Shown here: one piece after another, positions 4,653 to 43,684 of the stretch
How positions within the stretch are numbered: position 1 is the first letter of the stretch
How the letters are laid out: every line of letters begins with the position of its first letter
Source: an uncultured Roseivirgaceae bacterium
GTDB taxonomy: Bacteria > Bacteroidota > Bacteroidia > Cytophagales > Cyclobacteriaceae
DNA length: 64,000 nucleotides
Assembly: GCA_964488585.1 (NCBI GenBank)
Contig: CAZAWQ010000095.1
Coordinates: 531 to 64,530 of the forward strand
Direction of reading: 5' to 3'
Notes under the pieces: model-generated
What the model saw: only the letters and a program-made list of their open reading frames with translations
What the model was told of the DNA's origin: nothing
Databases searched by the model: none
Position numbers and translations under genes: made by a program

Positions 4653-5009
4653 ATGAAAAAGATTGGTGCGATATTTTGGACCCTACTTTTCACATTGTTT
4701 GCTGTTTTCCAATTCAATGATCCGGATGCTATGATTTGGATATTAATCTATGGAGCCGCAGCCTTATTGTCAATTTTGGTATACCTTGAAAAGGTTCGCC
4801 GACCAGTACTATGGATAGCATTAATAGCTTTCTTAGCTGGGGCTGGAATGCATTGGCCTGATACTTTCGAAGGTATATTACTGAAGGAAGATGGTAGCTA
4901 TACACCGGCGATTGAGGAAGCCCGTGAATCTCTCGGATTGCTTATTGGCGGATTAGCCATGGGATGGCATTTATTGGCTAACAAGGTCAAGCAGACTGCT
5001 GATTCGTAA
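4653..5009 (+). CDS. Small polytopic membrane protein (TMEM220-like)
   Basis: 118 aa with 3-4 hydrophobic helices. The FQFNDPDAMIWILIYG motif resembles the transmembrane-220 family. Its 3' end overlaps the convergent eboF-like gene by 23 nt. Confidence 0.55.
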   Translation: MKKIGAIFWTLLFTLFAVFQFNDPDAMIWILIYGAAALLSILVYLEKVRRPVLWIALIAFLAGAGMHWPDTFEGILLKEDGSYTPAIEEARESLGLLIGGLAMGWHLLANKVKQTADS

Positions 5010-6366
5010 GTTGATTCCAAATTACCTGGTATACTCCGGCAGCGTTCAGGGTGGCACCAGGAGACAAACCACTGGAAAATAATACCGGCCAGTCAACTGG
5101 GTCTTGTGGCACAATCCCATGTGACCCTTTGATCAAAGAAGGGTCCAGCGGTATGATATCCATCAGCACCCTGAATCCTAGTTTTTTCTTCAAAAGCTTC
5201 CATCCTACTTTAGCCATTAGCCATTTTATTTGTGGGTCGGCAAACATTTCTACGGGATCGTAACCCGGCTTCCGGTGTATGTCCACAGTGCGGGCAAAAT
5301 CCGGGGCCTTGGCGTCATCAAGCCAGTAGTAATACGTAAACCAACTGTCCGGTCGGGCCAAAACCATCAGATCGCCACTCCGGTGATGGTCCATTTGATT
5401 AATGCTCTTTTCCTCAGCTCCCCATACATCGGCTACTCCTTCTATTCTCTCTAAAGTAGATCTGACAGAAGAAATGTCTTGAGAATTCTTAATATAAACA
5501 TGAGCAACCTGATGATCAGCCACCGCAAAGGCCTTGCTGGCACCGGCATCCAGCAACTCCAGTCCACGTTCTTCTCGCACCTGTAGCCAACCGTTTTCCC
5601 TCAACACCCTATTTAAAGATATTGGATTGGATACTTCGGTAATGCCGTATTCTGAAAGCAAAACTACTCGTACACCTCGACCCTCATAGAAGACCACCAG
5701 TTTTTCAATTAGTTGGTCTATCTCTTTCAAGTCTGAGCCAATCTTGTCTGGATCATGTCCAAACTTTTGCAAGCAATAATCCAGATGAGGAAGATACACC
5801 AAAGAAAGTGTAGGTTGATGCTCTTCTTCAATGTTTATGGCCGCATTGGCAATCCACTTACTGGCCCGGATGGTAGTTTTTGGACCCCAAAAATCGAACA
5901 GGGGGAACTGACCAAAGCGCTGTTGCAGATGGTCACGTAGCTTCGGGGGATTGCTGTATACGTCAGGGATCTTCCGGCCATCTGCCAAGTAGTTAGGCCG
6001 TGGAGTAACCGAATAGTCAGTACTGGAATACATATTGTACCACCAAAATAGGTTGGCACAGGTAAAATCCGGGTCCAATTCCCGGGCGGCTTCCCAGATC
6101 TTAGGCGCTTCCACCAATTTATTTGATTGTCGCCAAAACTTTATCTCACATTCGTCTTTAAAGTACCACCCATTTCCAACTATTCCGTGTGTTCTGGGTT
6201 GTTGACCGGTAAGGAAAGTAGTCTGCATGGAACAGGTAACGGCCGGTACCAGGGGCTTGATATGATTTTTAGGCACTTGCTGTGACCACTTTTGAAGAAA
6301 AGGCGTGTGAGCTCCAATTACCCGGTCACTAAGACCCACTACATCAATGACAACTGTCCTTTGCAT
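4987..6366 (-). CDS. eboF: Alkaline phosphatase / nucleotide pyrophosphatase superfamily protein (EboF-like)
   Basis: 459 aa. The N-terminal VVIDVVGLS...TFLTGQQP..HGIVGNGW pattern is typical of type I phosphodiesterase/nucleotide pyrophosphatase. It is the last gene of the six-gene cluster. Confidence 0.8.
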   Translation of the reverse strand: MQRTVVIDVVGLSDRVIGAHTPFLQKWSQQVPKNHIKPLVPAVTCSMQTTFLTGQQPRTHGIVGNGWYFKDECEIKFWRQSNKLVEAPKIWEAARELDPDFTCANLFWWYNMYSSTDYSVTPRPNYLADGRKIPDVYSNPPKLRDHLQQRFGQFPLFDFWGPKTTIRASKWIANAAINIEEEHQPTLSLVYLPHLDYCLQKFGHDPDKIGSDLKEIDQLIEKLVVFYEGRGVRVVLLSEYGITEVSNPISLNRVLRENGWLQVREERGLELLDAGASKAFAVADHQVAHVYIKNSQDISSVRSTLERIEGVADVWGAEEKSINQMDHHRSGDLMVLARPDSWFTYYYWLDDAKAPDFARTVDIHRKPGYDPVEMFADPQIKWLMAKVGWKLLKKKLGFRVLMDIIPLDPSLIKGSHGIVPQDPVDWPVLFSSGLSPGATLNAAGVYQVIWNQLTNQQSA

Positions 6367-6371
6367 AACGA

Positions 6372-7577
6372 CTATTTCAGTTGCTCAATTACCCAAATCA
6401 ATTCCCTGGTGATGGATGTATTGATTTCAATTTGCAATTCTTCAGGAAGCACCTCCCAGGTGTAGGTTTCTACCTCCAAGTGACTGGTCATAGGTGAGTT
6501 GCTCCATAGTTGCAGCACTTCCCTTATATCAGCTTGTGTTGATTGCAGCAAGCCATAGGACTCAATAAATACCGGCACATGAAAATGTGTACGCCATTCA
6601 GCCGTTTCCGGGCGGTTAATGTACTCCAATGCCTGAGGCAGATCAGGATATTGATGTAAATTATTTCCAGAATCACGGGCTACCACCTGATGTAAATAAG
6701 TCGGTTCATCGAGTGACTCAAATATCTTTGAATAAACTTGCCGTGATTGCCGATGGTCGGTAAAATCACATTTAAGCGCTGAACTGATCTGGATTTTGCC
6801 TATGCCAATTCCTGCTTCCAAAAAACGGGACATTGCTTCAGCTGGTGACTCATAGGCCACAGCAAAATGACAAACATCATAGCAGACCGTTACATGTCTT
6901 CTTATGATCTCCTCTGCTTCATCCTTGGTAATTTCGAATTGTCCAATAAGGTATTTTTTACCTAACGGTATTAGCCAGTCATCAAAATACCGGATTGTTT
7001 CCAGTGAGTTTTCAATGAGTCCATCAGGCTCTGGTTCTATATCTAAATGAAGCGTAATGCCCTGATCCTGACGATAGCGATGTAACTGTACTACAATTTT
7101 TAATAAATTTTTAGTAGCAGCCCTGAAAACCTCATCATATTGCTCCCCTTTCCACCAGGGTTTGTAAGAGAGTGGGGAAGTACTAATACCACCATCCATA
7201 CCTTCTGGGAGCATTTGAGCTAAAAGATCAAACAACCTATTGGTGTATTTCACTCGTTCATCGGTAGTCCAGTCTGGTTGGTGTACCTGATCCTTAACAA
7301 GTTTTCTATGAAATCCGCCGTATGGGAAACCATTCATGGTGAACAGGTAGAACCCGTGCTCCTGCATCCACTCCAAAAAAGGACCGATTCCCAGCTGTGT
7401 AAGCTCAATGCTTGCCTGGTTGGACAGCCGCAAACCAATACCCATATCACCATCTTGTGACACCAGTTGCTTTACCACTGGCAAATGGGCTTGAAGTGAT
7501 GTGAACACCTCTACCCAAGTCTCGCCTGGATGTATGTTTGTACAGTAGGTTAAATGACCATTTAAAGGCAATCTCAT
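6372..7577 (-). CDS. eboE: Xylose-isomerase-like TIM-barrel protein (EboE-like)
   Basis: 401 aa, consistent with the sugar-phosphate isomerase/epimerase-like TIM-barrel family. Its ATG overlaps the stop of the upstream gene in an ATGA at 7574-7577, which suggests translational coupling. Confidence 0.8.
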   Translation of the reverse strand: MRLPLNGHLTYCTNIHPGETWVEVFTSLQAHLPVVKQLVSQDGDMGIGLRLSNQASIELTQLGIGPFLEWMQEHGFYLFTMNGFPYGGFHRKLVKDQVHQPDWTTDERVKYTNRLFDLLAQMLPEGMDGGISTSPLSYKPWWKGEQYDEVFRAATKNLLKIVVQLHRYRQDQGITLHLDIEPEPDGLIENSLETIRYFDDWLIPLGKKYLIGQFEITKDEAEEIIRRHVTVCYDVCHFAVAYESPAEAMSRFLEAGIGIGKIQISSALKCDFTDHRQSRQVYSKIFESLDEPTYLHQVVARDSGNNLHQYPDLPQALEYINRPETAEWRTHFHVPVFIESYGLLQSTQADIREVLQLWSNSPMTSHLEVETYTWEVLPEELQIEINTSITRELIWVIEQLK

Positions 7578-8725
7578 AAATCAAGGACGTTATTATTTTG
7601 ATAGTCCTCCAATAATTTAATGCTTTTCAATACCAGTTCTGAATCCATACGATGGACCTCTATACCAGTGCCAATGCTTTCCAATAGCGTAATAGTCAAT
7701 TGACCTCCCAAGTGTTCCTGAAAATCTCGAAGGCCTTGTAATAGTTCAGGATTGCTCAATCCAGGGTGATACAGGTCAAATCCCAGAAATTTCATCAAGT
7801 CAAGGAGCCGCTTGAGATCAGGCTTTGACAGTTTATTCTCCAGGCATGAGTATACAGAATCAAGGGCCATTCCCACCGCTACGGCCTCTCCGTGCCTGAT
7901 CTCATAGCCAGTCAGCTGTTCTAATTTATGAGCGGACCAGTGGCCGAAATCCAACGGCCTTGATGACCCCATTTCGAAAGGGTCACCGGAGGCAATGTGT
8001 TGCAAATGTAGATCAGCGCATCTATAGATTAAATGCTCCATCACCTTCATATCACGGTGTTTCAGTTTTTCGGCATTATCTTCAATAAACTTAAAATAAG
8101 CAGCGTCTTTTATCAAACCTACCTTGATACCTTCAGCTATACCTGATCTCCAGTCCCTGATGTCCAGGGTATGTAGGAATTCTTTGTCGTTTATAACCGC
8201 CACCGGCGGCGCAAAACTGCCAATGAAGTTCTTTTTACCAAAGGCATTCACCCCATTCTTAACTCCCACACCGGAGTCGTTCTGTGAAAGCACGGTGGTT
8301 GGAATCCTGATTAGCCGGATACCCCGATGACTGATAGCGGCAGCAAAACCCACCGCGTCAAGCACCGAACCACCTCCAATAGCGGCTACGTAGGAGTGCC
8401 GGTCAATTCCCAGATCGTTTATAGTCTGTATCAGCATCTCCACCAGCCTGTAGTCATTTTTACATTGCTCGCCACCTGGTATGACCATCGGAGTTTGCAC
8501 GCAAACGATCTGGTCGGAATGTTGGGTGGTGTATTGCCGTATATTTGGTAGCAGTTGTGGATGATGATCAATTACTCCCTGATCAACCACAAATAGTACT
8601 TTTTTGGGTCCATTTCCAGCATCCAGTACTTTGAGCAGAGAATTATTGTCTGTATTGAAAAGACTCTGGGTAAACAGTACATCATACTGATATGAGACAG
8701 TAAAAGATTGTTTCAAAGATTTCAT
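7574..8725 (-). CDS. eboD: 3-dehydroquinate synthase / sugar-phosphate cyclase family protein (EboD-like)
   Basis: AIGGGSVLDAVGFAA (nucleotide-binding Gly motif) and RHGEAVAVGMA (metal-binding His) are typical of the DHQS-like superfamily. Confidence 0.85.
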   Translation of the reverse strand: MKSLKQSFTVSYQYDVLFTQSLFNTDNNSLLKVLDAGNGPKKVLFVVDQGVIDHHPQLLPNIRQYTTQHSDQIVCVQTPMVIPGGEQCKNDYRLVEMLIQTINDLGIDRHSYVAAIGGGSVLDAVGFAAAISHRGIRLIRIPTTVLSQNDSGVGVKNGVNAFGKKNFIGSFAPPVAVINDKEFLHTLDIRDWRSGIAEGIKVGLIKDAAYFKFIEDNAEKLKHRDMKVMEHLIYRCADLHLQHIASGDPFEMGSSRPLDFGHWSAHKLEQLTGYEIRHGEAVAVGMALDSVYSCLENKLSKPDLKRLLDLMKFLGFDLYHPGLSNPELLQGLRDFQEHLGGQLTITLLESIGTGIEVHRMDSELVLKSIKLLEDYQNNNVLDL

Positions 8726-8733
8726 GAATACAC

Positions 8734-9657
8734 TTAGGTAACCGCAAACACTCTTGCCAATAATATGGAAAAAGGAAGCAATATTAATAACATTAAGCCG
8801 AAAAACCAGCCAGCAAATCCGGAAGCAACAGCAGCATTTAAAATTATCAGTCCCAAAACGCCGTTTTTTACCGCCAATCCGATTTTAAAAGGGTCATTGC
8901 TGCTTCTTGCCCTGAACAAAGGTGGCAACACTGCCAAAAGAAGGAATGCCAAATAAATTAAACTGTTCAATACTTCAAACTGTTTTAAAACGGCTAGCGA
9001 AAGTACCATTACCGTAGTTAGCAAGTACATTATCATCGCCAGATTAAAAGATGTTCTGCTACTTCCGTGTACTTCGCCCCGACTGACCAGCGTTATTGCT
9101 GAAATATAGATAATTGGGATGATTACCAAGAAGCCCAGAGGAACCACCTGCTGAGGATAAATACTTATGCCCAGCAATAAATTGCCTCCCCGGCATAATC
9201 CCATATTCAGTGGACCGAAAAAATCATTTCTCTTAGTAATGATATTGTAAGAGAGCACCAATGCACTCACACCCAGGGCAATCCAACCGCTGGTTAGGGT
9301 GGACAGAAAAGCCAATGTAACCCCTAGTAATAGCAGAGTGCCACCCATAACGCAAGCTCTTAAGCGAGATACCAGTCCTGAAGGAATGGGGCGTTCTGGC
9401 CGCTCCAATTGATCCAAGGCGGCATCAAAAAAATCATTAAGGACCACCCCTCCAGCATATAAACACATGCTCGCTACCCCGATCAACCCCAGTTTGTCCC
9501 ACGGCAAATCATGCCGGAAGAATCCAAAAATATCATTACCAACGGTATGTTGAAAAGCGAAAGATGCCGCAAAACCTGCCAGTATATCAGCCAGAGCAGT
9601 GAGTAGATTGGGTAGCCGCATTAGCGTAAGATATGCCCTGAATTTACTCATATCCAA
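8734..9657 (-). CDS. eboC: UbiA-family polytopic prenyltransferase (EboC-like)
   Basis: 307 aa with about 8-9 TM helices and the Asp-rich NDFFDAALD motif followed by RPIPSG, characteristic of UbiA prenyltransferases. Confidence 0.85.
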   Translation of the reverse strand: MDMSKFRAYLTLMRLPNLLTALADILAGFAASFAFQHTVGNDIFGFFRHDLPWDKLGLIGVASMCLYAGGVVLNDFFDAALDQLERPERPIPSGLVSRLRACVMGGTLLLLGVTLAFLSTLTSGWIALGVSALVLSYNIITKRNDFFGPLNMGLCRGGNLLLGISIYPQQVVPLGFLVIIPIIYISAITLVSRGEVHGSSRTSFNLAMIMYLLTTVMVLSLAVLKQFEVLNSLIYLAFLLLAVLPPLFRARSSNDPFKIGLAVKNGVLGLIILNAAVASGFAGWFFGLMLLILLPFSILLARVFAVT

Positions 9658-9662
9658 TGAGG

Positions 9663-10553
9663 CTATCTTATGATGTCGGATGCGGCGTCAGGTCGTTGTC
9701 CCCTCAGCACAGAATTTCCTTCAAAAAGCTGAGTTTGGTCCACTGACTCATCAGACCAGTCACTTTCATTCATTTGACCGCTTTGTCCATAGGCGGTAAG
9801 CGCATTCTGGTAGCATGTGAGCCTAATGTCTTCTTCCTTTATTCCACTTTTTGCCATAAGTCCTGCGGTTTTAGGTACCGCCAATGGATCGCTGATTCCC
9901 CAGTCAGCAGAGCTGTCAACAATGATCCTTTCACTTCCAAACTTTTGAACTACTGCCACCATTCGCTTATTGCCCATTTTAGTAAATGGATAAATAGTAA
10001 ATGCACACCAATACCCCCGGTCAAGTACTTCCCTTAAGGTCTCTTCATTGTTGTGATCTATGATCACTAACCCAGGGTCAATGCCATGTTCTTGTATCAC
10101 GTCCATGCTTCTAGTTGTTCCCCGTTTCTTATCTCTGTGTGGCGTGTGCACCTGCACCGGAAGATTTAACTCTTTCGCCAGTTCAAGTTGTTGTCTAAAA
10201 TATTTTTCTTCAATGTCAGTTTGATCATCAAACCCGATTTCACCTATACCCACTACACCCTCTTTACAAGCAAATAAGGGTAGAAGCTCCATTACTTCCT
10301 CAGCCAGGGCCTCGTTGTTGGCCTCCTTGGAATTGAGTCCAATGGTACAGTAATGCTTAATGCCAAACTGGCTGGCTCTAAATCTTTCCCAGCCCACCAG
10401 GCTACTAAAGTAATCCTTGAAAGAACCAGCGGAAGTACGTGGCTGACCAAGCCAAAACGCCGGCTCAATAATGGCGACAATCCCTGCTTCCTGCATACCC
10501 TGGTAATCGTCAGTGGTGCGTGAGGTCATATGTATATGTGGATCTATAAACAT
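9663..10553 (-). CDS. eboB: TatD-family metal-dependent hydrolase (EboB-like)
   Basis: Begins MFIDPHIHM (HxH). Internal VQVHTPH and IIDH motifs are typical of the TatD/amidohydrolase fold. Confidence 0.85.
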   Translation of the reverse strand: MFIDPHIHMTSRTTDDYQGMQEAGIVAIIEPAFWLGQPRTSAGSFKDYFSSLVGWERFRASQFGIKHYCTIGLNSKEANNEALAEEVMELLPLFACKEGVVGIGEIGFDDQTDIEEKYFRQQLELAKELNLPVQVHTPHRDKKRGTTRSMDVIQEHGIDPGLVIIDHNNEETLREVLDRGYWCAFTIYPFTKMGNKRMVAVVQKFGSERIIVDSSADWGISDPLAVPKTAGLMAKSGIKEEDIRLTCYQNALTAYGQSGQMNESDWSDESVDQTQLFEGNSVLRGQRPDAASDIIR

Positions 10554-10573
10554 GTCTATTATCTTAATTTTGT

Positions 10574-11479
10574 TCAGTTATGTTGCTCCCACCAACGTTT
10601 TCCAATGTCATCCCAGGTAACTTTATGCTCTAAAACATCAGCTGCGATTAAAGAATGATGATTCATGAAGGATTTAGCCTCCTCGGAGTTTAATGCTTTA
10701 GCAGCCAGCATAGCGGCTGCCTGCTGATCTGGATGGTCCATTGCTACAAGCTTTTCAAGATCTTTGTAAATACCCTCCGTTCCCTTGTTACCTATTGGTC
10801 TCCACATTTCCGGTGATGTTGAGCGCCCCGCCGCCCATCTTTCATGGGCGAAATTAGCTATCATTTTGCTCAATTCTTTATTGGAACGTTCTGCAAGACC
10901 GTAAATTTTGTACAGCGGTCTTTCCATAAAAAGAGCTTTCAACACCATTTGATTCCAGGCAGGCTGGTCCAAATACTCATAAGGGTATGGATTGTTTAGC
11001 ACTACTGCATCAAATACAACTGACATGTTGGTCCTAACTCCCTCTGAGGCCCTTGTAGTTAGCATATCCGGATAAGGTAATAGCGGCAGGGCACTGTAGA
11101 GTGCTACCAGTTCTGTAACTTCAGCAATACTAAATATTTGATCTAACAACCGGAGGAAGGCGCTGGCATCTTTAAATTGAAAACTGCAAAGCGCAAGTAC
11201 TCTCGCGGTCTGTGGTACCGTCCAACTTTCTAAACTGAAGCCCTTCCTTAATTCACTTGCTCGAATTTTATCATCATTGGTTACATCCAGATTGCTCTTT
11301 CCAATAAATCTAGGTATAGCACTAAACATCAAAAAGAGGTCTCTGGGCTGGGGCTGCCGGTTTAGTAGTTCTAATTTATCCAGAAGCCATTTTTGAGCAG
11401 GTTGATCAATCTGACGGATCAACAGTTTCTTTAAAAATCGGGTCAATGCGTCCGCATCTACCTGTAATTCTGTTCTCAT
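10574..11479 (-). CDS. eboA: EboA-like protein (no known catalytic motif)
   Basis: 301-aa helical protein and first gene of the cluster. The assignment rests mainly on position upstream of the TatD/UbiA/DHQS/TIM-barrel/phosphatase genes. Confidence 0.65.
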   Translation of the reverse strand: MRTELQVDADALTRFLKKLLIRQIDQPAQKWLLDKLELLNRQPQPRDLFLMFSAIPRFIGKSNLDVTNDDKIRASELRKGFSLESWTVPQTARVLALCSFQFKDASAFLRLLDQIFSIAEVTELVALYSALPLLPYPDMLTTRASEGVRTNMSVVFDAVVLNNPYPYEYLDQPAWNQMVLKALFMERPLYKIYGLAERSNKELSKMIANFAHERWAAGRSTSPEMWRPIGNKGTEGIYKDLEKLVAMDHPDQQAAAMLAAKALNSEEAKSFMNHHSLIAADVLEHKVTWDDIGKRWWEQHN

Positions 11480-11550
11480 TAATGAAACGACTTACGTATA
11501 AGGTTTTAAAGATAAATCAAATCGTAGAAACTTAATGGTCTGATTCAGCC

Positions 11551-11602
11551 AAAAAGACAAAAAAATTGCAGGTTAAAAATTCGTTTGAATTTTCAACCTG
11601 CA
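11551..11602 (-). terminator. Rho-independent terminator downstream of the bactofilin gene
   Basis: A 15-bp stem with one mismatch (11567-11581 pairing with 11588-11602) and a 6-nt loop. On the minus strand it is followed by ATTTTTTTGTCTTTTT. It separates the bactofilin gene from the ebo cluster. Confidence 0.8.
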
Positions 11603-11636: not shown

Positions 11637-12047
11637 TTAATTTGCAGTCATCAAGCTTGGAGATTCCACATTGTCGCTCTCCAACTTGATCTCTTTGGTT
11701 TTGACACCCATAGAGCAATCACCGTTAAATGAGGCTCCATCCCGGACTTCCAGTTTATGGGCAATAATGTCTCCATGAACTTTACAACCTTCACCCAATA
11801 TTAACAACTCGGTTACTTCCAGTTTTCCTTTTACGGTACCCTGGATTTCCGCATTACGCGCAAATATATCTCCTTCAATCACCCCAGATGCACCCAAGAC
11901 AATTTTGGATTTAGTCTTTATGGTACCTTTTAATTTGCCTTCCACGCGCACATTATCCGAAGATTCAACATTGCCTTCAATTGAAGTACCTGTTCCAATA
12001 ATTGTGTTGGATTCTACCGTACCTTGAGCTTCTACTTTACTAAACAT
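11637..12047 (-). CDS. Bactofilin (polymer-forming cytoskeletal protein)
   Basis: Repetitive beta-helix pattern (IIGTGTSIEGNVES..VRVEGKLKGTI..IVLGASGVIEGDI..AEIQGTVKGKL) typical of the bactofilin/CcmA domain. I prefer the ATG at 12047 (MFSKVEAQG) to the TTG at 12101 listed in the ORF track. Confidence 0.85.
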   Translation of the reverse strand: MFSKVEAQGTVESNTIIGTGTSIEGNVESSDNVRVEGKLKGTIKTKSKIVLGASGVIEGDIFARNAEIQGTVKGKLEVTELLILGEGCKVHGDIIAHKLEVRDGASFNGDCSMGVKTKEIKLESDNVESPSLMTAN

Positions 12048-12454
12048 ATTTACCGAGTTTAATTTTTTATTTAAATTATTGATGCCCGAAGTTATGTACA
12101 AAATATGAGTCCAACTATTGGAAATACACGGATATATTACTCGGTTGAGATTATTACTGATAATGTGGTAAAATCTATTAAGCAGTCATAGGGTAAACCG
12201 AAAGTGAAGGCATTTAAATGCAGACTCTCGTTTTAAAACAAACTGGCAGCAGGCATACTGTTATCGGAGCAGCTGGTTTGGTGATCTTTGTCATGGAATC
12301 TTACATCAGTCTCACTATTAGCAGATGTTTCATCCATTATTAACCGGTATCCGATTTTAATGGAATTATTACATATGGAATATAGAAGCTGATTTTCCCT
12401 GGTTCGCTTTACTTGGTTTTAATACTTTGGAGTTCAATATTATTGGTGAGGTGA

Positions 12455-12868
12455 ATGAAACAATTGGATCATAAAAAGAACTATTTAAAACAACTTTTCC
12501 GTATTGCCCTGGCAGATGCTCATCTGGATCAGCGTGAAGAGGAGTACTTGTTATATACTGCGGAAAAAATGGGTATTAACAATATGGATTTCCAGAAGAT
12601 AAAGGAATCTACTGAACAGACTCATGTGTTAATACCCGACAACTATTATTTACGGTTTAGAATGATTTTTGACTTTGTTTGGATGATGATGATTGACGGT
12701 GAAATCGACCCAAGAGAAGAAACTGTTTGTAAGCAGTTGGTCAATCAACTGGATTTTGCTTCTGGAGTAGTTGATGACCTGGTCGAACATATAAACTACC
12801 ATCTAAGTTGCGGGATCAACCCAGAACATACTTTTAGCAAGTTTGAAGAAATGTTACTTGAAAAGTAG
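12455..12868 (+). CDS. TerB-like (tellurite-resistance TerB / DjlA N-domain fold) protein
   Basis: 137 aa with two helical repeats of the type ALADAHLDQREEEYL and MMIDGEIDPREETVC, the typical TerB-family signature. Confidence 0.6.
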   Translation: MKQLDHKKNYLKQLFRIALADAHLDQREEEYLLYTAEKMGINNMDFQKIKESTEQTHVLIPDNYYLRFRMIFDFVWMMMIDGEIDPREETVCKQLVNQLDFASGVVDDLVEHINYHLSCGINPEHTFSKFEEMLLEK

Positions 12869-12900: not shown

Positions 12901-13332
12901 TTAGATATACGGGTTAAATTTCTGGATTTTTTTCTTTAATGCTTCCCTGTCCTTTTTAAGATGCTTGTCCTCAAGTATCTCGGACCAAAGTTCGTCGATT
13001 ACTTCCTTGTAATAACCCAGTCGGAGCGCCATATTCTGACAAAAATGTATCTCTCGTTGATCAATCTCTTCATCAATATTCATCAGATGAACAATACTGT
13101 AAAGGTAATCGAACTTGACATCGTTACTTAATGCTCCCAAAGATTCGATCGGTTTTGGGTACAGAATCATTTCTTCAAGCTGAAATGCGCTTACGCCATG
13201 ATTAGCAGCAATACCTTCCAGCGTTTTTTTCTCTTCTTTTGAAATTTCCCCATCCACCATTGCCAGATGGATCAAGACATTGAGCTGCATTCTTAGAACC
13301 ACATCCATAACATTCAATAAATTTCTGATCAA
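12901..13332 (-). CDS. TerB-like protein (paralog of 12455..12868)
   Basis: 143 aa with LAMVDGEISKEEKKTL and LMNIDEEIDQREIHFC repeats. It is convergent with its paralog across a 32-nt gap. Confidence 0.6.
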   Translation of the reverse strand: MIRNLLNVMDVVLRMQLNVLIHLAMVDGEISKEEKKTLEGIAANHGVSAFQLEEMILYPKPIESLGALSNDVKFDYLYSIVHLMNIDEEIDQREIHFCQNMALRLGYYKEVIDELWSEILEDKHLKKDREALKKKIQKFNPYI

Positions 13333-20633: not shown

Positions 20634-22181
20634 ATGCTTATTCCAAGCCTTTTACTTAAACAATTATACACTTTTGGAAGCCTAAAGAATGATAACGGTG
20701 GGGTATCCTTTTCATTGAAGAACCGTCTACAAGATGCCAAGTTAACGGAAATCATTCACCTTAAAATTGACGGCCGGGAAATATCCCTGGACAGGATCAC
20801 CCTGGATTTCGGAAACGGCCAGCTAATATCACCATCGGAAATATCCAAGGAATCGCCTGTTGACTTTCCACTACGGAAGTCATTTAATCTAATCGCTAAA
20901 ACCGATCCGTTGCAACTCGGTAAGCATAAAATTGAATTGAGGTTCAGGGCTAAGCCCTTTGGAAAACTTACTCTGAAAGTGGACGGTGGTATCTCAGACA
21001 CGCTTGAGTCATCTAACAAAATACCCCGTGACCCAGATAATGATTATGGTACTGAAGCAGTGAAGGCCAGGCTGGAATTTCTGGAGAAGTATTGCAACTT
21101 CTCATTAAATCACCTTAAACAATATTCTTTTGACCCCAACACCTTAAAAGGCAATATTGAGCATTTTACGGGGGTTGCACAAATTCCTTTAGGAATTGCC
21201 GGTCCAATAACCATCAACGGGGAGCATGCCCAAGGTGATTTCATTATTCCTATGGCTACTACCGAGGGCACATTGGTGGCTTCCTACAACAGAGGAATGA
21301 AGGTATTAAATGCCTGTGGGGGGGCAAAATGTACCGTAGTTGAGGATGCCATGCAACGGGCCCCTGTTTTCGTTTTTGAAGATGCCCGTGGGGCCAGGGA
21401 TTTTGTAAAATGGGTACGTAAGAACTTTGAAGAAATTTCAATAAAAGCGGAAGCAACCACCAGAGTGGGCAAGTTGTTATATATTGACGACTACCTGGCC
21501 AATAAATTTGCCTATTTGCGGTTTAACTTCACAACCGGCGATGCTGCTGGTCAGAATATGGTGGGTCGGGCAACTTTTACCGCCTGTAGTTGGATTTTAG
21601 ATCAATACAAAGAAAATAAAATCTTCCATTTTTATCTTGAATCCAATCTGGCTACTGATAAAAAAGCCAGCCAAGTAAATGTCATGCACACACGGGGTAA
21701 AAGGGTTACGGCAGAAGCTGTTCTTAAAAGGGATGTGCTAATACAATATATGCGGGTAGAGCCGGAAAGCCTTACCTATCATAGCCAGGTTTCTAACATT
21801 GGCGCAATGCTTTCAGGCGCTAATAACAATGGCGCCCATTCAGCAAACGCTATCACCGCCATTTTCATGGCCACCGGGCAGGATGTTGCCAACGTCTCAG
21901 AGTCATCTGCCGCTATTATGTACACAGAGCTTACTCCGGACAGAGATCTTTACATATCAATAACCATTCCTTCACTGATCGTGGCTACTTATGGTGGCGG
22001 CGTAGGACTGGCCACTCAGCGCGAGTGCCTGGAGCTTTTAGGATGTTATGGCCAAGGCAAGGTTCAGAAATTTGCAGAGATCGTAGCAGGTACAGTATTG
22101 GCTGGTGAAATCTCTTTGGCCGCTGCCATTTCCAGTTCAGACTGGGTCTCCAGTCACGAACAATACGGCCGTAACCGCTAA
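20634..22181 (+). CDS. Class I hydroxymethylglutaryl-CoA reductase with an N-terminal extension of about 130 aa
   Basis: The catalytic region carries IPLGIAGP, PMATTEGTLVAS.NRG, TGDAAGQNM and GGGVGL motifs of class I HMGR. The first ~130 aa are non-hydrophobic and unassigned. Confidence 0.9.
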   Translation: MLIPSLLLKQLYTFGSLKNDNGGVSFSLKNRLQDAKLTEIIHLKIDGREISLDRITLDFGNGQLISPSEISKESPVDFPLRKSFNLIAKTDPLQLGKHKIELRFRAKPFGKLTLKVDGGISDTLESSNKIPRDPDNDYGTEAVKARLEFLEKYCNFSLNHLKQYSFDPNTLKGNIEHFTGVAQIPLGIAGPITINGEHAQGDFIIPMATTEGTLVASYNRGMKVLNACGGAKCTVVEDAMQRAPVFVFEDARGARDFVKWVRKNFEEISIKAEATTRVGKLLYIDDYLANKFAYLRFNFTTGDAAGQNMVGRATFTACSWILDQYKENKIFHFYLESNLATDKKASQVNVMHTRGKRVTAEAVLKRDVLIQYMRVEPESLTYHSQVSNIGAMLSGANNNGAHSANAITAIFMATGQDVANVSESSAAIMYTELTPDRDLYISITIPSLIVATYGGGVGLATQRECLELLGCYGQGKVQKFAEIVAGTVLAGEISLAAAISSSDWVSSHEQYGRNR

Positions 22182-22187
22182 GCATCT

Positions 22188-24581
22188 ATGAAAATATTCA
22201 AATGGATTCTGATTGGGTTGGTGGTACTTTCATCAATCATGGTGTTTGGGTTATTTTGGTTGTTAGATTCCAGTAAGCCCACCTATAACGGTGAGGTAGT
22301 GTTGGACGGTCTACCAAATGACGTCCAGGTGTACTACGATAATTATGGTATCCCTCATATATACGCCAAGAATGAGGAAGACCTTTATTTTGCTTTGGGT
22401 TATGTGCACGCTCAGGACCGTCTGTTCCAAATGGAGCTTTTACGACGAGTTGGTGGAGGAAACCTGGCAGAGATTCTAGGACCAGACCTGGCGGAAACCG
22501 ATCGTTTTATGCGAACCATCGGCATTAATGAAACCGCCAAAAAATCCGCGGCCGCTTTTTTTTCCTCTAACAAAGAACCTTTTCAAAAGGCGGCATTAGC
22601 TTATCTTCAGGGGTTAAATACCTACCAAAAGACGGGAGCCACACCACCTGAATTTACTCTGCTAAATATCCCAATAAGGGATTTTACCCCAGTTGATCTC
22701 TACAGAATTATTGGTTACATGGGATTCAGTTTTAACACGGCTATACGAACGGACCCCCTGATCACCAGCATCGCTACTAAACTTGGCCCGGACTATATCA
22801 AAGACCTAAGGCTCAACACCACCACAGAAAACACCACAATTCCAACCAACCTGCAGGATACCACGGGTATTATGGGTATCACCAAAACTGCCTTGAATGT
22901 TTTGGAATCACTTCCGGTGCCACCCTGGATGGGCAGCAACTCTTGGGTAGTGGGACCTGAAAAAACCAAATCCGGCTACCCAATGCTGGCAAATGATACG
23001 CATATTGGTTTTGGACAACCGGCAGTCTTTTACGAGGCACATTTGAACAGTCCGGGTTTCAATTTCTATGGAAATCATTTGGCGGGGTTTCCATTTGCTA
23101 TAGTTGGGCACAACGATTACAGTGCTTGGGGCTTAACCATATTTCCCAATGATGATATGGATTTTTATCGGGAAAAACTTAATCCCAATAGCTCCAGGCA
23201 GGTTTGGAACAAGGACCACTGGGAAGATCTGAATAGCCGAAAGGAGACAATCGTCATCAAGGGTGGTGATGATCTGGAATTCATTGTTAGGTCCTCCAGA
23301 CATGGACCAATCATAAATGAGATAAACCCCGTAGTAGATTCACTGGAGCACCAGCCGGTAAGTTTTTTTTGGACCTTCAATAAATTTCCCAGTAAGATAT
23401 TGCAATTAGCCTATGGAATGGCACACAGCAAAAGTATTGATCAATTCAGGAGTGCAGTATCACTGCTGGAAGCCCCGGGACTAAATATTACCTATGCTGA
23501 TAAAGACGGAAATATTGCCTGGTGGGCTGCAGCCAGATTGATCAAAAGACCAGCACATGTGGAACCCAAAATGATTTTAGACGGCTCAAGTGGCCATGAC
23601 GACCCTCTGGGCTGGTATCCTTTTTCTGTAAACCCTAGATCAGAAAACCCCGATCATGGTTTTGTCTATTCTGCCAACAATCAACCGGATAGCTCATACA
23701 AGGTATTGCATCCCGGATACTATTATCCCGGCGCAAGGGGAAAGCGTATAACCCAACTGATTTCTGAAAATGACCAATGGGACTTAAAGGGTTTCCAGGA
23801 AATGGTAATGGATGATAAAAGCCTGTTATATCCTGATGTGGCCCAAACTATAACTTCACTAGTTTCCAGCGAGCTCACAGTTTTGGAACAGCATGTATTG
23901 GACCTCCTCAGTTCCTGGGATGGCAGCCATGGATTATCAGATATTGGCCCTACTATTTATTATCAACTAATCTATCGGGTGCAAACAAATATGATGGAAG
24001 ACGAATTGGGGGCAGATCAACTCAAAATATACTTAACTACTCTGGTTGCCCGGCGGTCACTTTCCCATTTAATCGCTAATGAACGTTCTGTTTGGTGGGA
24101 TAATGTTCACACCGCAGACCTGGAAACACGCGAACTGATAATCAACCGGAGTTTTAAAGAGGCAGTAAGTACATTGGCGAAATCCTTAGGTAATGATCCA
24201 AAAAATTGGACCTGGGACAGAGTTCATCTTTTGGAGCACGTGCACGCAATCGGTCGAAAGAAACCCTTCAATCTACTATTCAATGTTGGTCCATTTGGGG
24301 TCAGTGGCGGTGATGAAGTGATCAATAAGATGGACTTTGATAAAACCCAATCCCCGTATAAGGTTCTATCGGGTGCAGCAATGCGTATACTTATCGATCT
24401 TGCTGATATCGAAAATTCTTTGAGCGTACTTCCTACCGGCCAATCAGGACACCCAATGAGTCCTCATTACCAGGATCAGGCTGAATTGTATAACAGTGGA
24501 AGGTTTAGAGCACAATTAATGGATAAGGATGAGATCATTTCAGTATCCAAGCAACGGTTATTACTGAGAGCTATGGACTAA
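22188..24581 (+). CDS. Penicillin acylase / AHL-acylase family Ntn-hydrolase (N-terminal membrane anchor)
   Basis: 797 aa. GIPHIYA, HAQDRLFQME and the nucleophile context GSNSWVVGP are typical of penicillin amidase family S45. It starts 6 nt after the HMGR stop. Confidence 0.9.
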   Translation: MKIFKWILIGLVVLSSIMVFGLFWLLDSSKPTYNGEVVLDGLPNDVQVYYDNYGIPHIYAKNEEDLYFALGYVHAQDRLFQMELLRRVGGGNLAEILGPDLAETDRFMRTIGINETAKKSAAAFFSSNKEPFQKAALAYLQGLNTYQKTGATPPEFTLLNIPIRDFTPVDLYRIIGYMGFSFNTAIRTDPLITSIATKLGPDYIKDLRLNTTTENTTIPTNLQDTTGIMGITKTALNVLESLPVPPWMGSNSWVVGPEKTKSGYPMLANDTHIGFGQPAVFYEAHLNSPGFNFYGNHLAGFPFAIVGHNDYSAWGLTIFPNDDMDFYREKLNPNSSRQVWNKDHWEDLNSRKETIVIKGGDDLEFIVRSSRHGPIINEINPVVDSLEHQPVSFFWTFNKFPSKILQLAYGMAHSKSIDQFRSAVSLLEAPGLNITYADKDGNIAWWAAARLIKRPAHVEPKMILDGSSGHDDPLGWYPFSVNPRSENPDHGFVYSANNQPDSSYKVLHPGYYYPGARGKRITQLISENDQWDLKGFQEMVMDDKSLLYPDVAQTITSLVSSELTVLEQHVLDLLSSWDGSHGLSDIGPTIYYQLIYRVQTNMMEDELGADQLKIYLTTLVARRSLSHLIANERSVWWDNVHTADLETRELIINRSFKEAVSTLAKSLGNDPKNWTWDRVHLLEHVHAIGRKKPFNLLFNVGPFGVSGGDEVINKMDFDKTQSPYKVLSGAAMRILIDLADIENSLSVLPTGQSGHPMSPHYQDQAELYNSGRFRAQLMDKDEIISVSKQRLLLRAMD

Positions 24582-27717: not shown

Positions 27718-28737
27718 TCAGATATGTAATTTTTTAACTACTTCTGAAAATCTATCCACCATAGTATCGTTAATTTCACGATGAGTTACCATCCTGATCT
27801 CTTGTCCTCCAAATGGCAGTGCTCGTATATCCTCCGCGCCAAGTTTTGTCAGTAACTGATTTGGAGATAACCCGTCTTCCAATTCAAATATCAAAATATT
27901 GGTATCCACCGGTTGTACACTGCTAACAAAGGGCAAGTTCCTGACGATTTCGCCCAGAGCCCGTGCCCGGTCATGATCATCGACCAGCGCCTTGATGTGA
28001 TGGTCCAGTGCATACAATCCAGCCGCTGCTAAATAGCCTGCCTGCCGCATCCCACCTCCCAATACTTTTCGAACTCTTTTGCCCATTGACATTGCCTGAC
28101 GGCTGCCACATAAAACCGACCCCACTGGTGCGCCCAACCCCTTAGAAAGACATATGGATATGGTGTCAAAAAGCCCGCCCCAGGCCGCGGTGTCATCTTT
28201 GGTTTCTGCCAGTGCATTGAATAACCTGGCTCCATCCAAGTGCATTTTTAAATTGTGTTCATCCGCTACATGCTTGATCTCTGCTACTTGCGACAACGGG
28301 TAGTAGCTGCCACCACCCTTATTAATTGTATTCTCCAACACCACCAATTTTGTGACAGGAAAATGTATGTCATGTGGATTTATGTTGTCTATTACATCCT
28401 GGGCGAAAATTCTTCCCCTGTCCCCATCTATCAATCTTACTGAAACCTGAGAATTGAAGGCCATCCCCCCACCTTCGTAGTTGTAAACATGAGATCTTCG
28501 GTCGCAAATAACCTGGTCCTGGGGGCTGGTGTTTATGCGGACAGCAATCTGATTGGTCATGGTTCCTGAGGGGCAAAACAGTGCTGCCTCTTTTCCAAAC
28601 ATAGTGGCCACTTTGGCTTCAAGGGCCTTAACAGAAGGGTCTTCATCAAATACGTCATCTCCAACTTCTGCTTGGATCATTGCTTCCAGCATTTCTGGAG
28701 ATGGTTTGGTCACTGTATCACTTCTTAAGTCCATCAT
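27718..28737 (-). CDS. ltaE: Low-specificity L-threonine aldolase
   Basis: DLRSDTVTKP...GDDV..EDP...FCPSGTMTNQ and a PLP-lysine region CLSKGLGAP are typical of the beta-eliminating lyase / threonine aldolase family. Confidence 0.9.
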   Translation of the reverse strand: MMDLRSDTVTKPSPEMLEAMIQAEVGDDVFDEDPSVKALEAKVATMFGKEAALFCPSGTMTNQIAVRINTSPQDQVICDRRSHVYNYEGGGMAFNSQVSVRLIDGDRGRIFAQDVIDNINPHDIHFPVTKLVVLENTINKGGGSYYPLSQVAEIKHVADEHNLKMHLDGARLFNALAETKDDTAAWGGLFDTISICLSKGLGAPVGSVLCGSRQAMSMGKRVRKVLGGGMRQAGYLAAAGLYALDHHIKALVDDHDRARALGEIVRNLPFVSSVQPVDTNILIFELEDGLSPNQLLTKLGAEDIRALPFGGQEIRMVTHREINDTMVDRFSEVVKKLHI

Positions 28738-39927: not shown

Positions 39928-40536
39928 TCAATCCTTACGGTGCCTGGATTTCAACACATCCACAACTTCAGCAAGCGATACTTCTTTATGTTCCAACAAC
40001 ACTAACAAATGAAACAACAAATCCGCTGTCTCTTCTTTCAGCTTTTGGGTATTTGATTCTTTAGCCTCAATAACTACCTCCACCGCCTCTTCTCCTACTT
40101 TTTGGGCTATTCTATTAATACCTGAAGCAAAAAGGGAGGCCGTGTATGATCCTTCTGGTGCAGTCCTTTTTCGGTTTCCAATTATTTTTTGCAACTCTTG
40201 TAAAAACTGTATCTCATTTTCAATATTCTCGGACCCAAAACAGGTGTCTGTGCCCAAGTGGCAGGTAGGCCCAAGTGGTTGGGCTTTTATCAACAACGTG
40301 TCCCCATCACAATCTGCTTTTAAGGAGTCCAACTTCAGAAAATTTCCAGAAGTCTCTCCTTTGGTCCACAATCGTCGTTTAGAACGACTGTAGAATGTTA
40401 CTTTTCCGGACTTCCTGGTGACTTCCAGCGCCTGCTGGTTCATATAGCCTAACATGAGTACCTGTTTGGTTTTACTGTCTTGAATCACCGCTGGAATCAG
40501 CCCGTTATTCTTATCAAAATTTAGTTCCTTATTCAT
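39928..40536 (-). CDS. hisIE: Bifunctional phosphoribosyl-AMP cyclohydrolase / phosphoribosyl-ATP diphosphatase
   Basis: LIPAVIQD....VLMLGYMN..A (HisI) and a C-terminal EE..E.....[11 protein letters not shown] (HisE). Last gene of the his operon. Confidence 0.95.
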
Positions 40537-41288
40537 ATTCGCATTGGTAGGCCTGCTGCCCGTAATTGTTTCTTTAAATCCATAATATCCACTTCGTTAA
40601 AGTGGAAAATACTCGCTGCTAATGCCGCGTCAGCCTTTCCGCTGGTAAACACCTCAACAAAATGATCTACCCCTCCTCCTCCACCTGAAGCAATAATCGG
40701 GATGGTCAGTTTGGTAGACAATTGACAGGTGAGCTCATTTGCGAAGCCGGTTTTGGTGCCATCGTGGTCCATAGAAGTAAGTAAGATCTCACCTGCACCT
40801 CTTTCTTCAACCTCCAATGCCCAGCTAAGAGTTTCCAGGGTGGTGGGCCTGCTACCTCCATGAGTGTGCACCAAGTTTTTTCCGTGCTGATTTCTGGAAT
40901 CAATGGCTACCACAATGCATTGACTGCCAAAAGTAGCCGCCAGTTCGTTTATCAGCTGAGGCTGACCTACAGCAGCCGAATTCACCGATACTTTATCCGC
41001 TCCCGCGTTAAGCAAGTCCGATACATGCTTTACCTGTGAAATACCGCCACCCACGGTGAAAGGAATATTGATCTCCCTGGCCACTTTCCTTACTAGATCT
41101 ATCAGGGTTTTACGATTCTCAAGAGTAGCGGTAATGTCCAAAAAAACCAGTTCATCTGCACCGGCATGGGAGTAAACAGCCGCTTGTTCCACCGGGTCCC
41201 CAGCATCTATCAGCGACACAAAGTTCACTCCCTTTACAGTTCGGCCGTTCTTTATGTCAAGACACGGTATGATTCTTTTGGTTAGCAT
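40533..41288 (-). CDS. hisF: Imidazole glycerol phosphate synthase, cyclase subunit
   Basis: KRIIPCLD...GR.VKGV.F and GADKVS.NSAAV motifs of HisF. Confidence 0.96.
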
Positions 41289-41290
41289 TT

Positions 41291-42004
41291 CTAAAATTTA
41301 GATAGTTCCTTTAAGGTAATCCTTCCTTCATATATGGCCTTCCCTACAATAACGCCGGCTACTCCACTAAACTTCAAGTCTCTTAAGTCCTGTATGCTAC
41401 TGACCCCTCCGCTGGCAATTATTGACAGTTGGGGATATGCTTTTACCAGCCATTTGTACAAACCAACTGCGGGCCCTTGCAATAACCCGTCCTTACTCAC
41501 ATCGGTACAAATGACCTGACGAATTCCTTTCTGGAAATAATAGTCCAGAAAGTCACTTAAGTTCCATTCGGATTGTTCCTGCCAGCCGCTAATAGCGATT
41601 TTCTCATCCCGAACATCCGCACCTAGAATGATTTTCCCTGCTCCAAATTCATTTAGCCAACCTTCAAATTGGTCAGGCTTTTTTACCGCGATACTACCAC
41701 CTGTAACCTGTTTGGCACCTGCATCAAATACTTTTAAGAGGTCGTCCCTGGATTGAACTCCTCCCCCGAAATCTATTTCAAGATTGGTATTGTTGGATAT
41801 TTTTTTTAATACCTCAAGGTTAATTACTTTTTTGGCTTTTGCTCCGTCCAGATCCACCAGGTGTAATCTTTTTATACCCGCATCCTGAAACTCCAAAGCC
41901 ATTTCCAATGGATTATCCCGGTATACGGTTTTTTGCTGATAATCACCCTTAGACAGTCGAACACATTTTCCTCCAATGACGTCTATAGCCGGTATTATGT
42001 CCAT
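41291..42004 (-). CDS. hisA: ProFAR isomerase
   Basis: IIPAID...GKCVRL..GD and HLVDLDGA motifs. Sits between hisH and hisF. Confidence 0.95.
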
Positions 42005-42005
42005 G

Positions 42006-42593
42006 TTACAGTTTTAAAAAGTTTGCAAGAATGGTCTGACCAGAATCACTACTTTTCTCAGGGTGAGCCTGGACTGCATAGTAATTATCCTTATGCAATG
42101 CCCCACTAAATGGGATAATATACTCTGTGGTCCCAATAGTTTCTACTCCAAGTTCTGCATAATAGCTATGTACATAATACAGATAGGGGTTTTCAAGTCC
42201 TGAGAATAGGGGACTTTCGTTGATCTTTAGACAATTCCAACCCATATGGGGCACTTTGTAGGTTCTCTTTTCAGTTTGAAACTTTTTTACCTGAAGGTCG
42301 AACATACCCAAACATTCGGTATCACCTTCCTCGCTGTAACGACACATAAGTTGTAAGCCTATACAAATTCCCAGGAATGGTTGATGTAGTGAGGTAAGAA
42401 CCTGGTCCAAGCCCTTAGCCCTTAAATATGCCATGGCACTTTTAGCCTCTCCTTGCCCAGGGAAAATGACCTTATCTGCGGACTTGATCTCTTGATGATC
42501 ATCAGTATGCAGTGGATCTACTCCCAGTCGCTGTAGTGCGTAAATCACTGATTGGACATTTCCAGCATTGTATTTTACAACTGCAATTTTCAT
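42006..42593 (-). CDS. hisH: Imidazole glycerol phosphate synthase, glutamine amidotransferase subunit
   Basis: Y.AGN..S........G, the GICIGLQL catalytic Cys and VPHMGWN. Confidence 0.95.
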   Translation of the reverse strand: MKIAVVKYNAGNVQSVIYALQRLGVDPLHTDDHQEIKSADKVIFPGQGEAKSAMAYLRAKGLDQVLTSLHQPFLGICIGLQLMCRYSEEGDTECLGMFDLQVKKFQTEKRTYKVPHMGWNCLKINESPLFSGLENPYLYYVHSYYAELGVETIGTTEYIIPFSGALHKDNYYAVQAHPEKSSDSGQTILANFLKL

Positions 42594-43684
42594 TATAAAA
42601 CCCCTTTGGTACTGGGTAGTTGGTTGTTATTAATATCCTGTCCAACAGCCATTTTTATTGACCTGGCAAAAGCCTTGAAAATTGCCTCAATTTTATGATG
42701 CTCATTTTTCCCTTCAGCCTTAATATTAAGATTACATTTTGCCGTGTCGGTGAAACTCTTAAAAAAATGGAAGAACATTTCGGTGGGCATACCACCAACC
42801 ATTTCTCTTTTGAACCCCGCATCCCATTCCAACCAGTTCCGTCCTCCGAAATCAATGGCTACCTGGGCCAGGCAGTCATCCATGGGAAGACAGTACCCAT
42901 ATCGTTCTATACCCCTTTTATCTCCCAGGGCTCTGTAGAAAGCCTCTCCCAGGGCCAACGCGGTGTCTTCGATGGTATGGTGTTCATCAACTTCAAGATC
43001 ACCTTTGACGGTTACCTTAAGATCCAGTTGACCGTGTTTCGCCAATTGATCCAACATGTGATCAAAAAAGCCAATACCTGTATGGTTCTTTGACAGCCCC
43101 TGTCCATTCAGACGAAGATCAATGGATATCTCTGTTTCGTTAGTATTTCTTTTTACCTGTACCTGGCGGTCGGTGCCTATTAGGAAGGTGAATATTTCAC
43201 TCCAGTGAGCGGTGCACAACACCGTATCCGGTTCTATGTTTTTACCTATGAAAATTGCCTGAGCACCTAGGTTCTTCGCCAGTTGAATGTCAGATGCCCG
43301 GTCTCCAATTACAAATGAATTAGCCAGATCATATGACCCATCCAGGAATCTGGTGAGCATTGCCGTACCCGGTTTTCGGGTATCTGCTCCTTCCGACTCA
43401 AAAGTACGATCAATAAGTATGTCATTAAATTGTACTCCAGCACCTTCCAGTGTCTCTAACATCTTGTTTTGAGCTGGCCAAAACTGGTCTTCAGGAAAAG
43501 AAGAAGTACCCAGGCCATCCTGATTGGTTACCATAATCAGCTCATATGATAGTCTTTTGGATATATGGTGTAAGGCAACTAATGATCCGGGAAGAAATGA
43601 GAGCTTTTCAAGTGAATCAACCTGTTCATCAGGAGGTTCCTGTATGATGGTACCATCCCTGTCTATGAATAAAACCTTTTTCAT
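42593..43684 (-). CDS. hisB: Bifunctional histidinol-phosphatase / imidazoleglycerol-phosphate dehydratase
   Basis: N-terminal HAD motif LFIDRDGT. The C-terminal IGPD motifs are GIGFFDHML and HH..E..FKA.ARS. Confidence 0.95.

Follow-up and report, generated by a model that had tools for sequence, protein, structure and literature searches.

A complete eboABCDEF operon in an uncultured Cytophagales bacterium, probably for a farnesylated quinoline of the saccharoquinoline/thallusin type

The DNA analysed here (the window) is a stretch of 64,000 nucleotides (nt) from contig CAZAWQ010000095.1 of an uncultured Roseivirgaceae bacterium, and at positions 4987-11479 it contains six co-directional open reading frames (ORFs) on the minus strand that correspond to the ebo genes eboA to eboF. 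The six-gene ebo operon is widespread, and the copy here, in a Cytophagales host of marine type, is complete and ordinary. An earlier note, made from the sequence alone, had described a complete eboA-F cluster at this place, and its gene order, folds, packing and every coordinate are confirmed by the ORFs, the family models and the gene junctions. In order of transcription the genes are:

10574-11479, minus strand: eboA, 301 amino acids (aa), a soluble all-alpha helical-repeat protein
9663-10553, minus strand: eboB, 296 aa, a metal-dependent hydrolase of the TatD/amidohydrolase fold
8734-9657, minus strand: eboC, 307 aa from a TTG start, a predicted membrane-embedded, UbiA-like aromatic farnesyltransferase
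7574-8725, minus strand: eboD, 383 aa, a cyclase resembling DHQS (3-dehydroquinate synthase)
6372-7577, minus strand: eboE, 401 aa, a xylose-isomerase-like metal-dependent TIM barrel
4987-6366, minus strand: eboF, 459 aa, a phosphodiesterase/pyrophosphatase of the alkaline-phosphatase superfamily

The junctions from eboA to eboF measure 20, 5, 8, -4 and 5 nt, where the negative value is the ATGA overlap at 7574-7577. This overlap had been pointed out before, as had the motifs MFIDPHIHM, NDFFDAALD, GGGSVLD and HGEAVA, all of which are present. Only eboC has an ambiguous start, with TTG at 9657, ATG at 9651 (305 aa, the start called on the sister contig PVMK01173061.1) or ATG at 9621 (295 aa, the start called by JGI). 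An upstream start is favoured because the alignment to the EboC model begins at residue 8 of the longest form. The six genes most likely form one mRNA with a promoter within 11480-11556, as judged for the single transcript from gene spacing only.

Protein families were assigned with curated NCBIfam models and their cut-offs together with Pfam, and the E-values of the ebo proteins (1e-49 to 1e-171) exclude chance matches. EboC and EboE score above the cut-offs of their equivalog models (NF035940, 343.2 bits against 250; NF035939, 484.1 against 250), EboD above that of the PRK06203-type model NF004852 (571.3 against 333) and EboA above that of the EboA_domain model NF035938 (165.5 against 50). 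The comparison with Ebo family models that the earlier note had proposed was thus positive for EboC, EboE, the EboA domain and the EboD type. EboA is also assigned to PF28008 (EboA) in precomputed Pfam, and EboD matches PF01761 and PF24621; Pfam likewise supports the UbiA fold for EboC and the DHQ-synthase fold for EboD. No dedicated curated model exists for EboB and EboF, which match PF01026 at 72.7 bits and PF01663 (type-I phosphodiesterase fold) at 196.5 bits, respectively.

The AlphaFold2 model of EboA has 18 helices and a mean confidence (pLDDT) of 95, and a fold search against the PDB gave no match better than E = 0.13. Judged from the model, a scaffold or adaptor is a more fitting role for this helical-repeat fold than that of an enzyme. 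The closest solved relative of EboB is the uncharacterised archaeal hydrolase AF_1765 (3guw, E 1e-23); true TatD DNases are far weaker matches, at E = 2.5e-8 or worse. Among the six proteins, only EboC has multiple hydrophobic segments, EboA has none, and an N-terminal hydrophobic leader was found in none of them, so that all but EboC look cytoplasmic from their sequences. Against the UbiA, MenA-type, ChlG and GGGP models EboC reaches 41-78 bits, far below their cut-offs; the value for the ubiA model TIGR01474 is 40.8 bits (cut-off 275), and no MenA model is among the matches listed.

EboD remains below the cut-off of the housekeeping aroB model TIGR01357 (229.5 against 305 bits), and the DHQS, EEVS and DOIS chains in the PDB are distant relatives only (E 1e-42 to 1e-23). 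Its substrate-pocket motif is LDFGHWSAHKLE, conserved in 72 EboD orthologues, in place of the DHQS motif LNLGHTFGHAIE. Sequence searches of the PDB with EboE and EboF found no solved relative. The AlphaFold2 model of EboE (pLDDT 91) is a TIM barrel with IolI (1i60), the Art22 isomerase (8z1i), AsbF (3dx5) and xylose isomerases as the best folds in the PDB. IolI is an inosose isomerase and AsbF an aromatising 3-dehydroshikimate dehydratase, and on the modelled fold EboE is most likely an inosose isomerase or dehydratase.

Residues of the catalytic type that would be expected are conserved in EboB to EboF when 57-81 Bacteroidota orthologues are compared. In EboB this is the HxH with which the protein starts, in EboC N74-D75-x2-D78-x3-D82, in EboD the GGG together with K, N, E and His, in EboE a dense set of His, Asp and Glu, and in EboF D8, T44, H193, D195, D284, H285 and H416. 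The EboC orthologues retain the first Asp-rich motif (NDxxDxxxD); in the C-terminal half, the site of the second Asp-rich motif in UbiA enzymes, they share no conserved Asp. A segment S-R-G-E-V-H-G (residues 192-198) is nearly invariant among them.

Conservation was followed in the best 80 related Bacteroidota loci (labelled L001 and so on). The order A-B-C-D-E-F is colinear in 60 of these, and contig ends cut most of the remainder; the co-conservation that the earlier note wanted surveyed is therefore present. Identical copies of the proteins are present on a contig of 65,310 bp in NCBI and JGI and on two metagenome contigs in JGI. In PVMK01173061.1, EboE is 97% identical and the entire neighbourhood is syntenic. 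The nearest named genomes are the Flammeovirgaceae metagenome-assembled genomes (MAGs) SZUA-3 and SZUA-212 and MAGs of Cyclobacteriaceae, with an EboE identity of 56-78%, and the best match in a species representative is 78%. Compared with the genes at the corresponding position, EboB has an identity of 70-92% in 68 loci, and EboF one of 55-83% in relatives. The flanking genes (rpsB, tsf, an amidohydrolase gene, and bactofilin, TerB-like and DUF445 genes) are common to the closest relatives only, which indicates that the cluster has been vertically inherited among housekeeping genes and that the flanks lie outside the system.

Conservation is by far the highest in EboB, with 70-92% identity as compared with 30-76% for EboA and 37-82% for EboC, and reaches at least 98% at most EboB residues across Bacteroidota. 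This pattern in the sequences suggests an unusually constrained active site or an interface with several partners.

Some loci deviate in gene content. Three of them (L009, L031 and L073, from Cytophagales/Cyclobacteriaceae MAGs) lack eboD at its place between eboC and eboE, and in them eboB is separated from eboC by unrelated genes. In Adhaeribacter aquaticus (L025) eboE-eboF are separated from the other ebo genes, as was already noted by Yurchenko et al. 2016. Unrelated insertions are found inside the clusters of L006 (4905-5956 and 8314-9975), L039 (6562-8709) and L019 (5208-6632). By sequence inspection only, the inserted genes resemble a PIN-like protein, a MutS-like ATPase, a TPR histidine kinase and outer-membrane or lipoprotein ORFs, and the same inspection of the inserted genes in L006, L009, L019, L039 and L073 found no recurrent family and nothing biosynthetic. 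Two joined proteins were seen on metagenome contigs. In one (P0014, 620 aa, on a contig of 2.9 kb), EboB and EboC are fused in frame over their full lengths, possibly as an artefact. The other (P0069) joins residues 1 to about 229 of EboA to the C-terminal two-thirds of EboB; it has the appearance of a deletion or of a chimera from assembly and could be an artefact.

The earlier note considered ebo to be a pathway with no identified product. This is out of date since a preprint of May 2026 (bioRxiv 10.64898/2026.05.21.724671) assigned it to thallusin, a seaweed growth signal for which the ebo genes are required. Among 35 strains, ebo genes were present in 27 of 27 thallusin producers and in 0 of 8 non-producers. 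All ebo-carrying strains tested, from five phyla and including terrestrial Nostoc, gave thallusin; two ebo-carrying Nostoc strains make it too. In Stieleria maiorica, thallusin is lost when eboB, eboC, eboE or eboF is singly deleted. The quinoline core takes up labelled L-aspartate, labelling excludes a shikimate origin, and EboC from three phyla farnesylates a 6,7,8-trihydroxyquinaldic acid ester. The preprint suggests that the last step might proceed without an enzyme or with the help of iron. According to the same preprint, the Bacteroidota producers, including the Cytophagales member Algoriphagus machipongonensis PR1, have the set eboABCDEF, and the survey comprised 3,403 ebo clusters in 3,304 genomes. 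EboC ('UbiA-297') of Maribacter, Zobellia and Algoriphagus was found by Amiri Moghaddam et al. 2022 (PMC9235831) to farnesylate 8-HQA (8-hydroxyquinoline-2-carboxylic acid). Taken together, the two studies cover farnesylation of hydroxyquinaldic acids with farnesyl pyrophosphate (FPP) by EboC from Maribacter, Zobellia, Algoriphagus, Stieleria and Saccharomonospora. EboD orthologues yield DEI, not dehydroquinate, according to work from 2024 as cited in PMC12904256.

The window carries a standard Bacteroidota-type eboABCDEF operon, the product of which, by analogy with these producers, is probably a meroterpenoid, namely a farnesylated quinoline of the saccharoquinoline/thallusin type. Orthology to the tested strains suggests that this lineage may be capable of making a signal of the thallusin type, and EboC, which has the conserved NDxxDxxxD motif and a membrane topology, would be expected to farnesylate a hydroxyquinaldic acid. 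In such a pathway EboD would make the cyclitol, the role demonstrated for orthologues elsewhere in the work cited in PMC12904256. EboE, an IolI/AsbF-like metal-dependent TIM barrel, would by its fold isomerise or dehydrate the inosose towards an aromatic ring. The ring and L-aspartate would then give a core of the trihydroxyquinaldic acid type through some combination of EboB (hydrolase or cyclase), EboF (phosphoester hydrolysis) and EboA (scaffold). EboC would attach farnesyl from FPP at the membrane and possibly cyclise it, drawing on the general isoprenoid pool of the cell, and an oxidative ring cleavage would lead to thallusin.

The earlier note had presumed a prenylated cyclitol or sugar-phosphate derivative. 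The cyclitol part of this is retained because the farnesylated core derives from a cyclitol, but the core is aromatic and L-aspartate contributes to it. The further statement that the native role must differ in a non-photosynthetic host is unnecessary since the archetype of a thallusin producer is a member of the Bacteroidota with eboABCDEF.

Several points weigh against this interpretation. The assignment of thallusin comes from one unreviewed preprint and the organism in question is uncultured. The deletions were made in Stieleria maiorica and none in a Bacteroidota strain, and the identity to Algoriphagus orthologues is moderate (44-46% for EboC and 34-39% for EboA). EboA is also below the cut-off of the stricter EboA_family model NF035937 (265.7 against 320 bits), and we infer both the single transcript and its promoter. 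Earlier genetics tie ebo to the export of scytonemin monomers and to nematode repellence. Finally, scans that covered nearly every window ORF of 150 aa or more found no candidate for the final oxidative ring opening, which means that the end product could stop at a saccharoquinoline-like stage. The same scans found no candidate for the step that joins aspartate.

The absence of a candidate ring-cleavage dioxygenase from the window is also the first argument for a pathway with the same logic and a different end product. This would be a related farnesylated quinoline/cyclitol meroterpenoid such as saccharoquinoline, serving the bacterium in, for instance, metal chelation or membrane-associated redox and not in algal signalling. 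The closest relatives are Flammeovirgaceae and Cyclobacteriaceae MAGs and not known algal symbionts, and EboC is just 37-49% identical to most Bacteroidota orthologues. However, thallusin was obtained from every ebo strain tested in the five phyla, the last step might need no enzyme or only iron, and EboC has kept its function over far larger divergence than is seen here (10.64898/2026.05.21.724671). A different end product is rather unlikely, although it is the best of the alternatives.

A 'metabolite traffic' system appears considerably less probable. In this case the Ebo proteins would provide a prenyl-linked carrier, or carry intermediates of another pathway across the inner membrane, which is the role suggested in Nostoc punctiforme for scytonemin monomers. 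Klicki et al. 2018 (PMC6282210) support such a role, the NCBI name for EboA and EboE is still 'metabolite traffic protein', and a gene for a small TMEM220-like membrane protein, described below, recurs beside the cluster. On the other hand, five of the six Ebo proteins have soluble enzyme folds, no scytonemin genes or other cargo pathway adjoin the cluster, and the flanking genes are kept in close relatives only. The preprint moreover recasts the scytonemin phenotype as indirect, with N. punctiforme itself making thallusin (10.64898/2026.05.21.724671).

It is very improbable that the locus belongs to ordinary primary metabolism, with EboD as the housekeeping aroB product and EboC as a quinone prenyltransferase of the UbiA/MenA type. 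Both the source annotation and NF004852 name EboD '3-dehydroquinate synthase' and the 64-kb window has no other aroB. The earlier note had named a housekeeping aroB as the finding that would overturn it, but the model cut-offs and the literature lead us to reject an aroB/shikimate locus: EboD scores below the aroB model and above the EboD-type model, it has a pocket motif other than that of DHQS, its orthologues give DEI in the work cited above, and thallusin has no shikimate origin by labelling (10.64898/2026.05.21.724671). The UbiA model gives EboC 41 bits as compared with 343 for the EboC model, and aroC, a shikimate gene, is found at a distance of 39 kb and in an unrelated setting. Equally improbable is a role of EboB as a YtkR4-like TatD nuclease in resistance to a natural product that damages DNA and is made elsewhere, as speculated in a yatakemycin preprint that places EboB at about 24% identity to the AP endonuclease YtkR4, because deletion of eboB abolishes thallusin (10.64898/2026.05.21.724671), the solved protein nearest to EboB is the uncharacterised hydrolase and not a DNase, and no YtkR5-like partner or genotoxin cluster is found nearby.

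The farnesylated quinoline pathway is thus the preferred explanation, and the only element of the locus that may be new is a gene next to eboF:

4653-5009, plus strand: gene for a small membrane protein of the TMEM220 family, 118 aa (PF15071, 78.3 bits against a cut-off of 27)

The gene is convergent with eboF and overlaps its 3' end by 23 nt. When every ORF of the 80 loci was searched iteratively, the family was found in 26, in 25 of which it lies at most 600 bp from the edge of the ebo cluster (L001, L004, L007, L020, L022, L027-L029, L032, L036-L038, L041-L043, L051, L053, L055, L057, L063, L066, L067, L069, L074 and L075). It is located immediately upstream of eboA and in the same orientation in 14 loci (Pedobacter, Daejeonella, Mucilaginibacter, Salegentibacter and Autumnicola), upstream of eboA on the opposite strand in one (Chitinophaga, L055), directly downstream of eboF on the same strand in seven, and convergent with eboF, as in the window, in three. 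This makes it the most recurrent ebo neighbour by a wide margin, the runner-up family being found in 9 loci. The neighbouring proteins have about 115-125 aa and conserved ND-x-D and P-x-IE-x2-RE motifs. No mention of this neighbour was found in the searchable ebo literature.

Since the adjacency has been kept through at least three rearrangements, it is conceivable, if tentative, that the TMEM220 protein is an unrecognised seventh ebo partner in many Bacteroidota, working with EboC or aiding the release of a lipophilic product. The gene is absent within 10 kb of all four Algoriphagus ebo loci examined. That the family is exclusive to ebo clusters was rejected, as three more distant homologues occur in unrelated contexts. 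The unlinked homologues and the Algoriphagus loci together indicate an optional accessory at most. One more distant homologue (P0320, within 7953-9366 of L084) starts 2 nt after a gene for a xylose-isomerase-like TIM barrel (PF01261), at a distance from any ebo cluster. This arrangement could hint at a pairing of TIM barrel and TMEM220 proteins, EboE being in the same fold superfamily. For thallusin research the recurrent neighbour is a cheap lead.

Upstream of eboA two features were distinguished:

11557-11602, minus strand: intrinsic-terminator-like hairpin with a 16-bp stem and a T-run
11480-11556, minus strand: intergenic region expected to hold the ebo promoter

The hairpin proper (11567-11602) has a perfect 16-bp stem followed by the T-run, with a folding energy of -21.7 kcal/mol (z = -6.4) that was equalled by none of 200 shuffled sequences. 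It is located 35 nt past the stop codon of the upstream bactofilin gene (11637-12101), a position that indicates that it terminates the bactofilin gene and insulates the ebo operon, in line with the insulating terminator described in the earlier note. No exact Bacteroidota -7 box (TAnnTTTG) was found in 11480-11556; candidates with one mismatch are TATCTTTA, 28 nt, and TAAGTTTC, 48 nt upstream of the eboA ATG. A sigma-70 scan gave fewer matches than in shuffled sequence, and a search of the window for riboswitches, tRNAs and other RNA elements (Rfam) found none.

The neighbours in the window include ribosomal, bactofilin, TerB, DUF445, GDPD, UbiB, HMG-CoA reductase, his and aroC genes. The HMG-CoA reductase gene (20634-22181, plus strand) encodes an enzyme of the class-I, NADPH type (363 bits to TIGR00533, below the cut-off of 441.8) and lies 9.2 kb from eboA, about the distance given before. 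Its proposed role as a dedicated supplier of prenyl donors for ebo was rejected, because the two are adjacent, next to eboF, in only one of the 80 loci (L024, Cesiribacter), and the gene is best read as part of the general isoprenoid supply. Directly after it, within 20634-24581 (plus strand), follows a gene for a 797-aa acylase of the penicillin-amidase/PvdQ type (PF01804, 689 bits), which by sequence could be an acyl-homoserine-lactone or other N-acyl amidase.

A complete hisG-D-C-B-H-A-F-IE operon is present at 39928-46879 (minus strand) and a separate chorismate synthase gene, aroC, at 49889-50965 (plus strand); these positions show that eboD is not grouped with genes for aromatic amino acids. 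Two small convergent genes with TerB-like domains (12455-12868, plus strand, and 12901-13332, minus strand), one above the Pfam cut-off and the other just below, are both conserved in L007. The gene at 27718-28737 (minus strand) encodes an aldolase dependent on pyridoxal phosphate that scores above the cut-off for GntG of the guanitoxin type (364.8 against 230 bits) and also resembles low-specificity threonine aldolase.

More than 3,000 genomes with ebo clusters had already been reported; the locus contributes one further lineage, of uncultured Cytophagales, and it offers no easier test of the remaining Ebo chemistry than cultured producers do. Its value is mainly corrective: ebo is no longer an orphan pathway, given that assignments for the cyclase and prenylation steps and for the end product were made between 2022 and 2026.

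Comparison with other ebo systems places the operon clearly. In Nostoc punctiforme the protein families are homologous, and the NCBIfam 'metabolite traffic' names match the role proposed by Klicki et al. 2018 (PMC6282210). The ebo genes of Nostoc are however split, with two copies of eboD, and lie near scy genes, whereas the window has one compact operon in a non-photosynthetic host and no scy context; adjacency to scyA-F was not found, as no scy-like gene occurs among nearly all window ORFs of at least 150 aa. The EDB cluster of Pseudomonas fluorescens NZI7 has homologues of all six ebo genes but also three extra genes, a different gene order and a connection to indole-derived nematode repellents, none of which apply to the window. 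In Saccharomonospora sp. CNQ-490, of the Actinomycetota type, the core genes eboB, C, E and F and a farnesyl-quinoline product are shared with the ebo type, but the cluster has no eboD and reaches the cyclitol through the flanking genes ino1-3 (10.64898/2026.05.21.724671), whereas the window has eboD and no ino genes. The plastid ebo operon of eustigmatophytes, probably acquired from Bacteroidetes, has the same ABCDEF order as the window (Yurchenko et al. 2016); it is encoded in the plastid of an alga, and the operon described here lies on a bacterial chromosome among housekeeping genes.

The closest resemblance is to eboABCDEF of the thallusin producers in Bacteroidota (Maribacter sp. MS6, Zobellia spp. 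and Algoriphagus machipongonensis PR1), with the same six genes in the same order, on one strand and tightly packed. The host belongs to the same phylum as these producers and, with Algoriphagus, to the same order (Cytophagales). It differs from them in being an uncultured Flammeovirgaceae/Cyclobacteriaceae-like lineage, known here from its genes, and the TMEM220-like gene adjoins eboF in the window and not in Algoriphagus loci. The identities to orthologues from the genus Algoriphagus are 34-39% for EboA, 71-73% for EboB, 44-46% for EboC, 55-57% for EboD, 51-53% for EboE and 58-60% for EboF. The locus is thus a real cluster of an already known kind, typical of the ebo set of thallusin producers.

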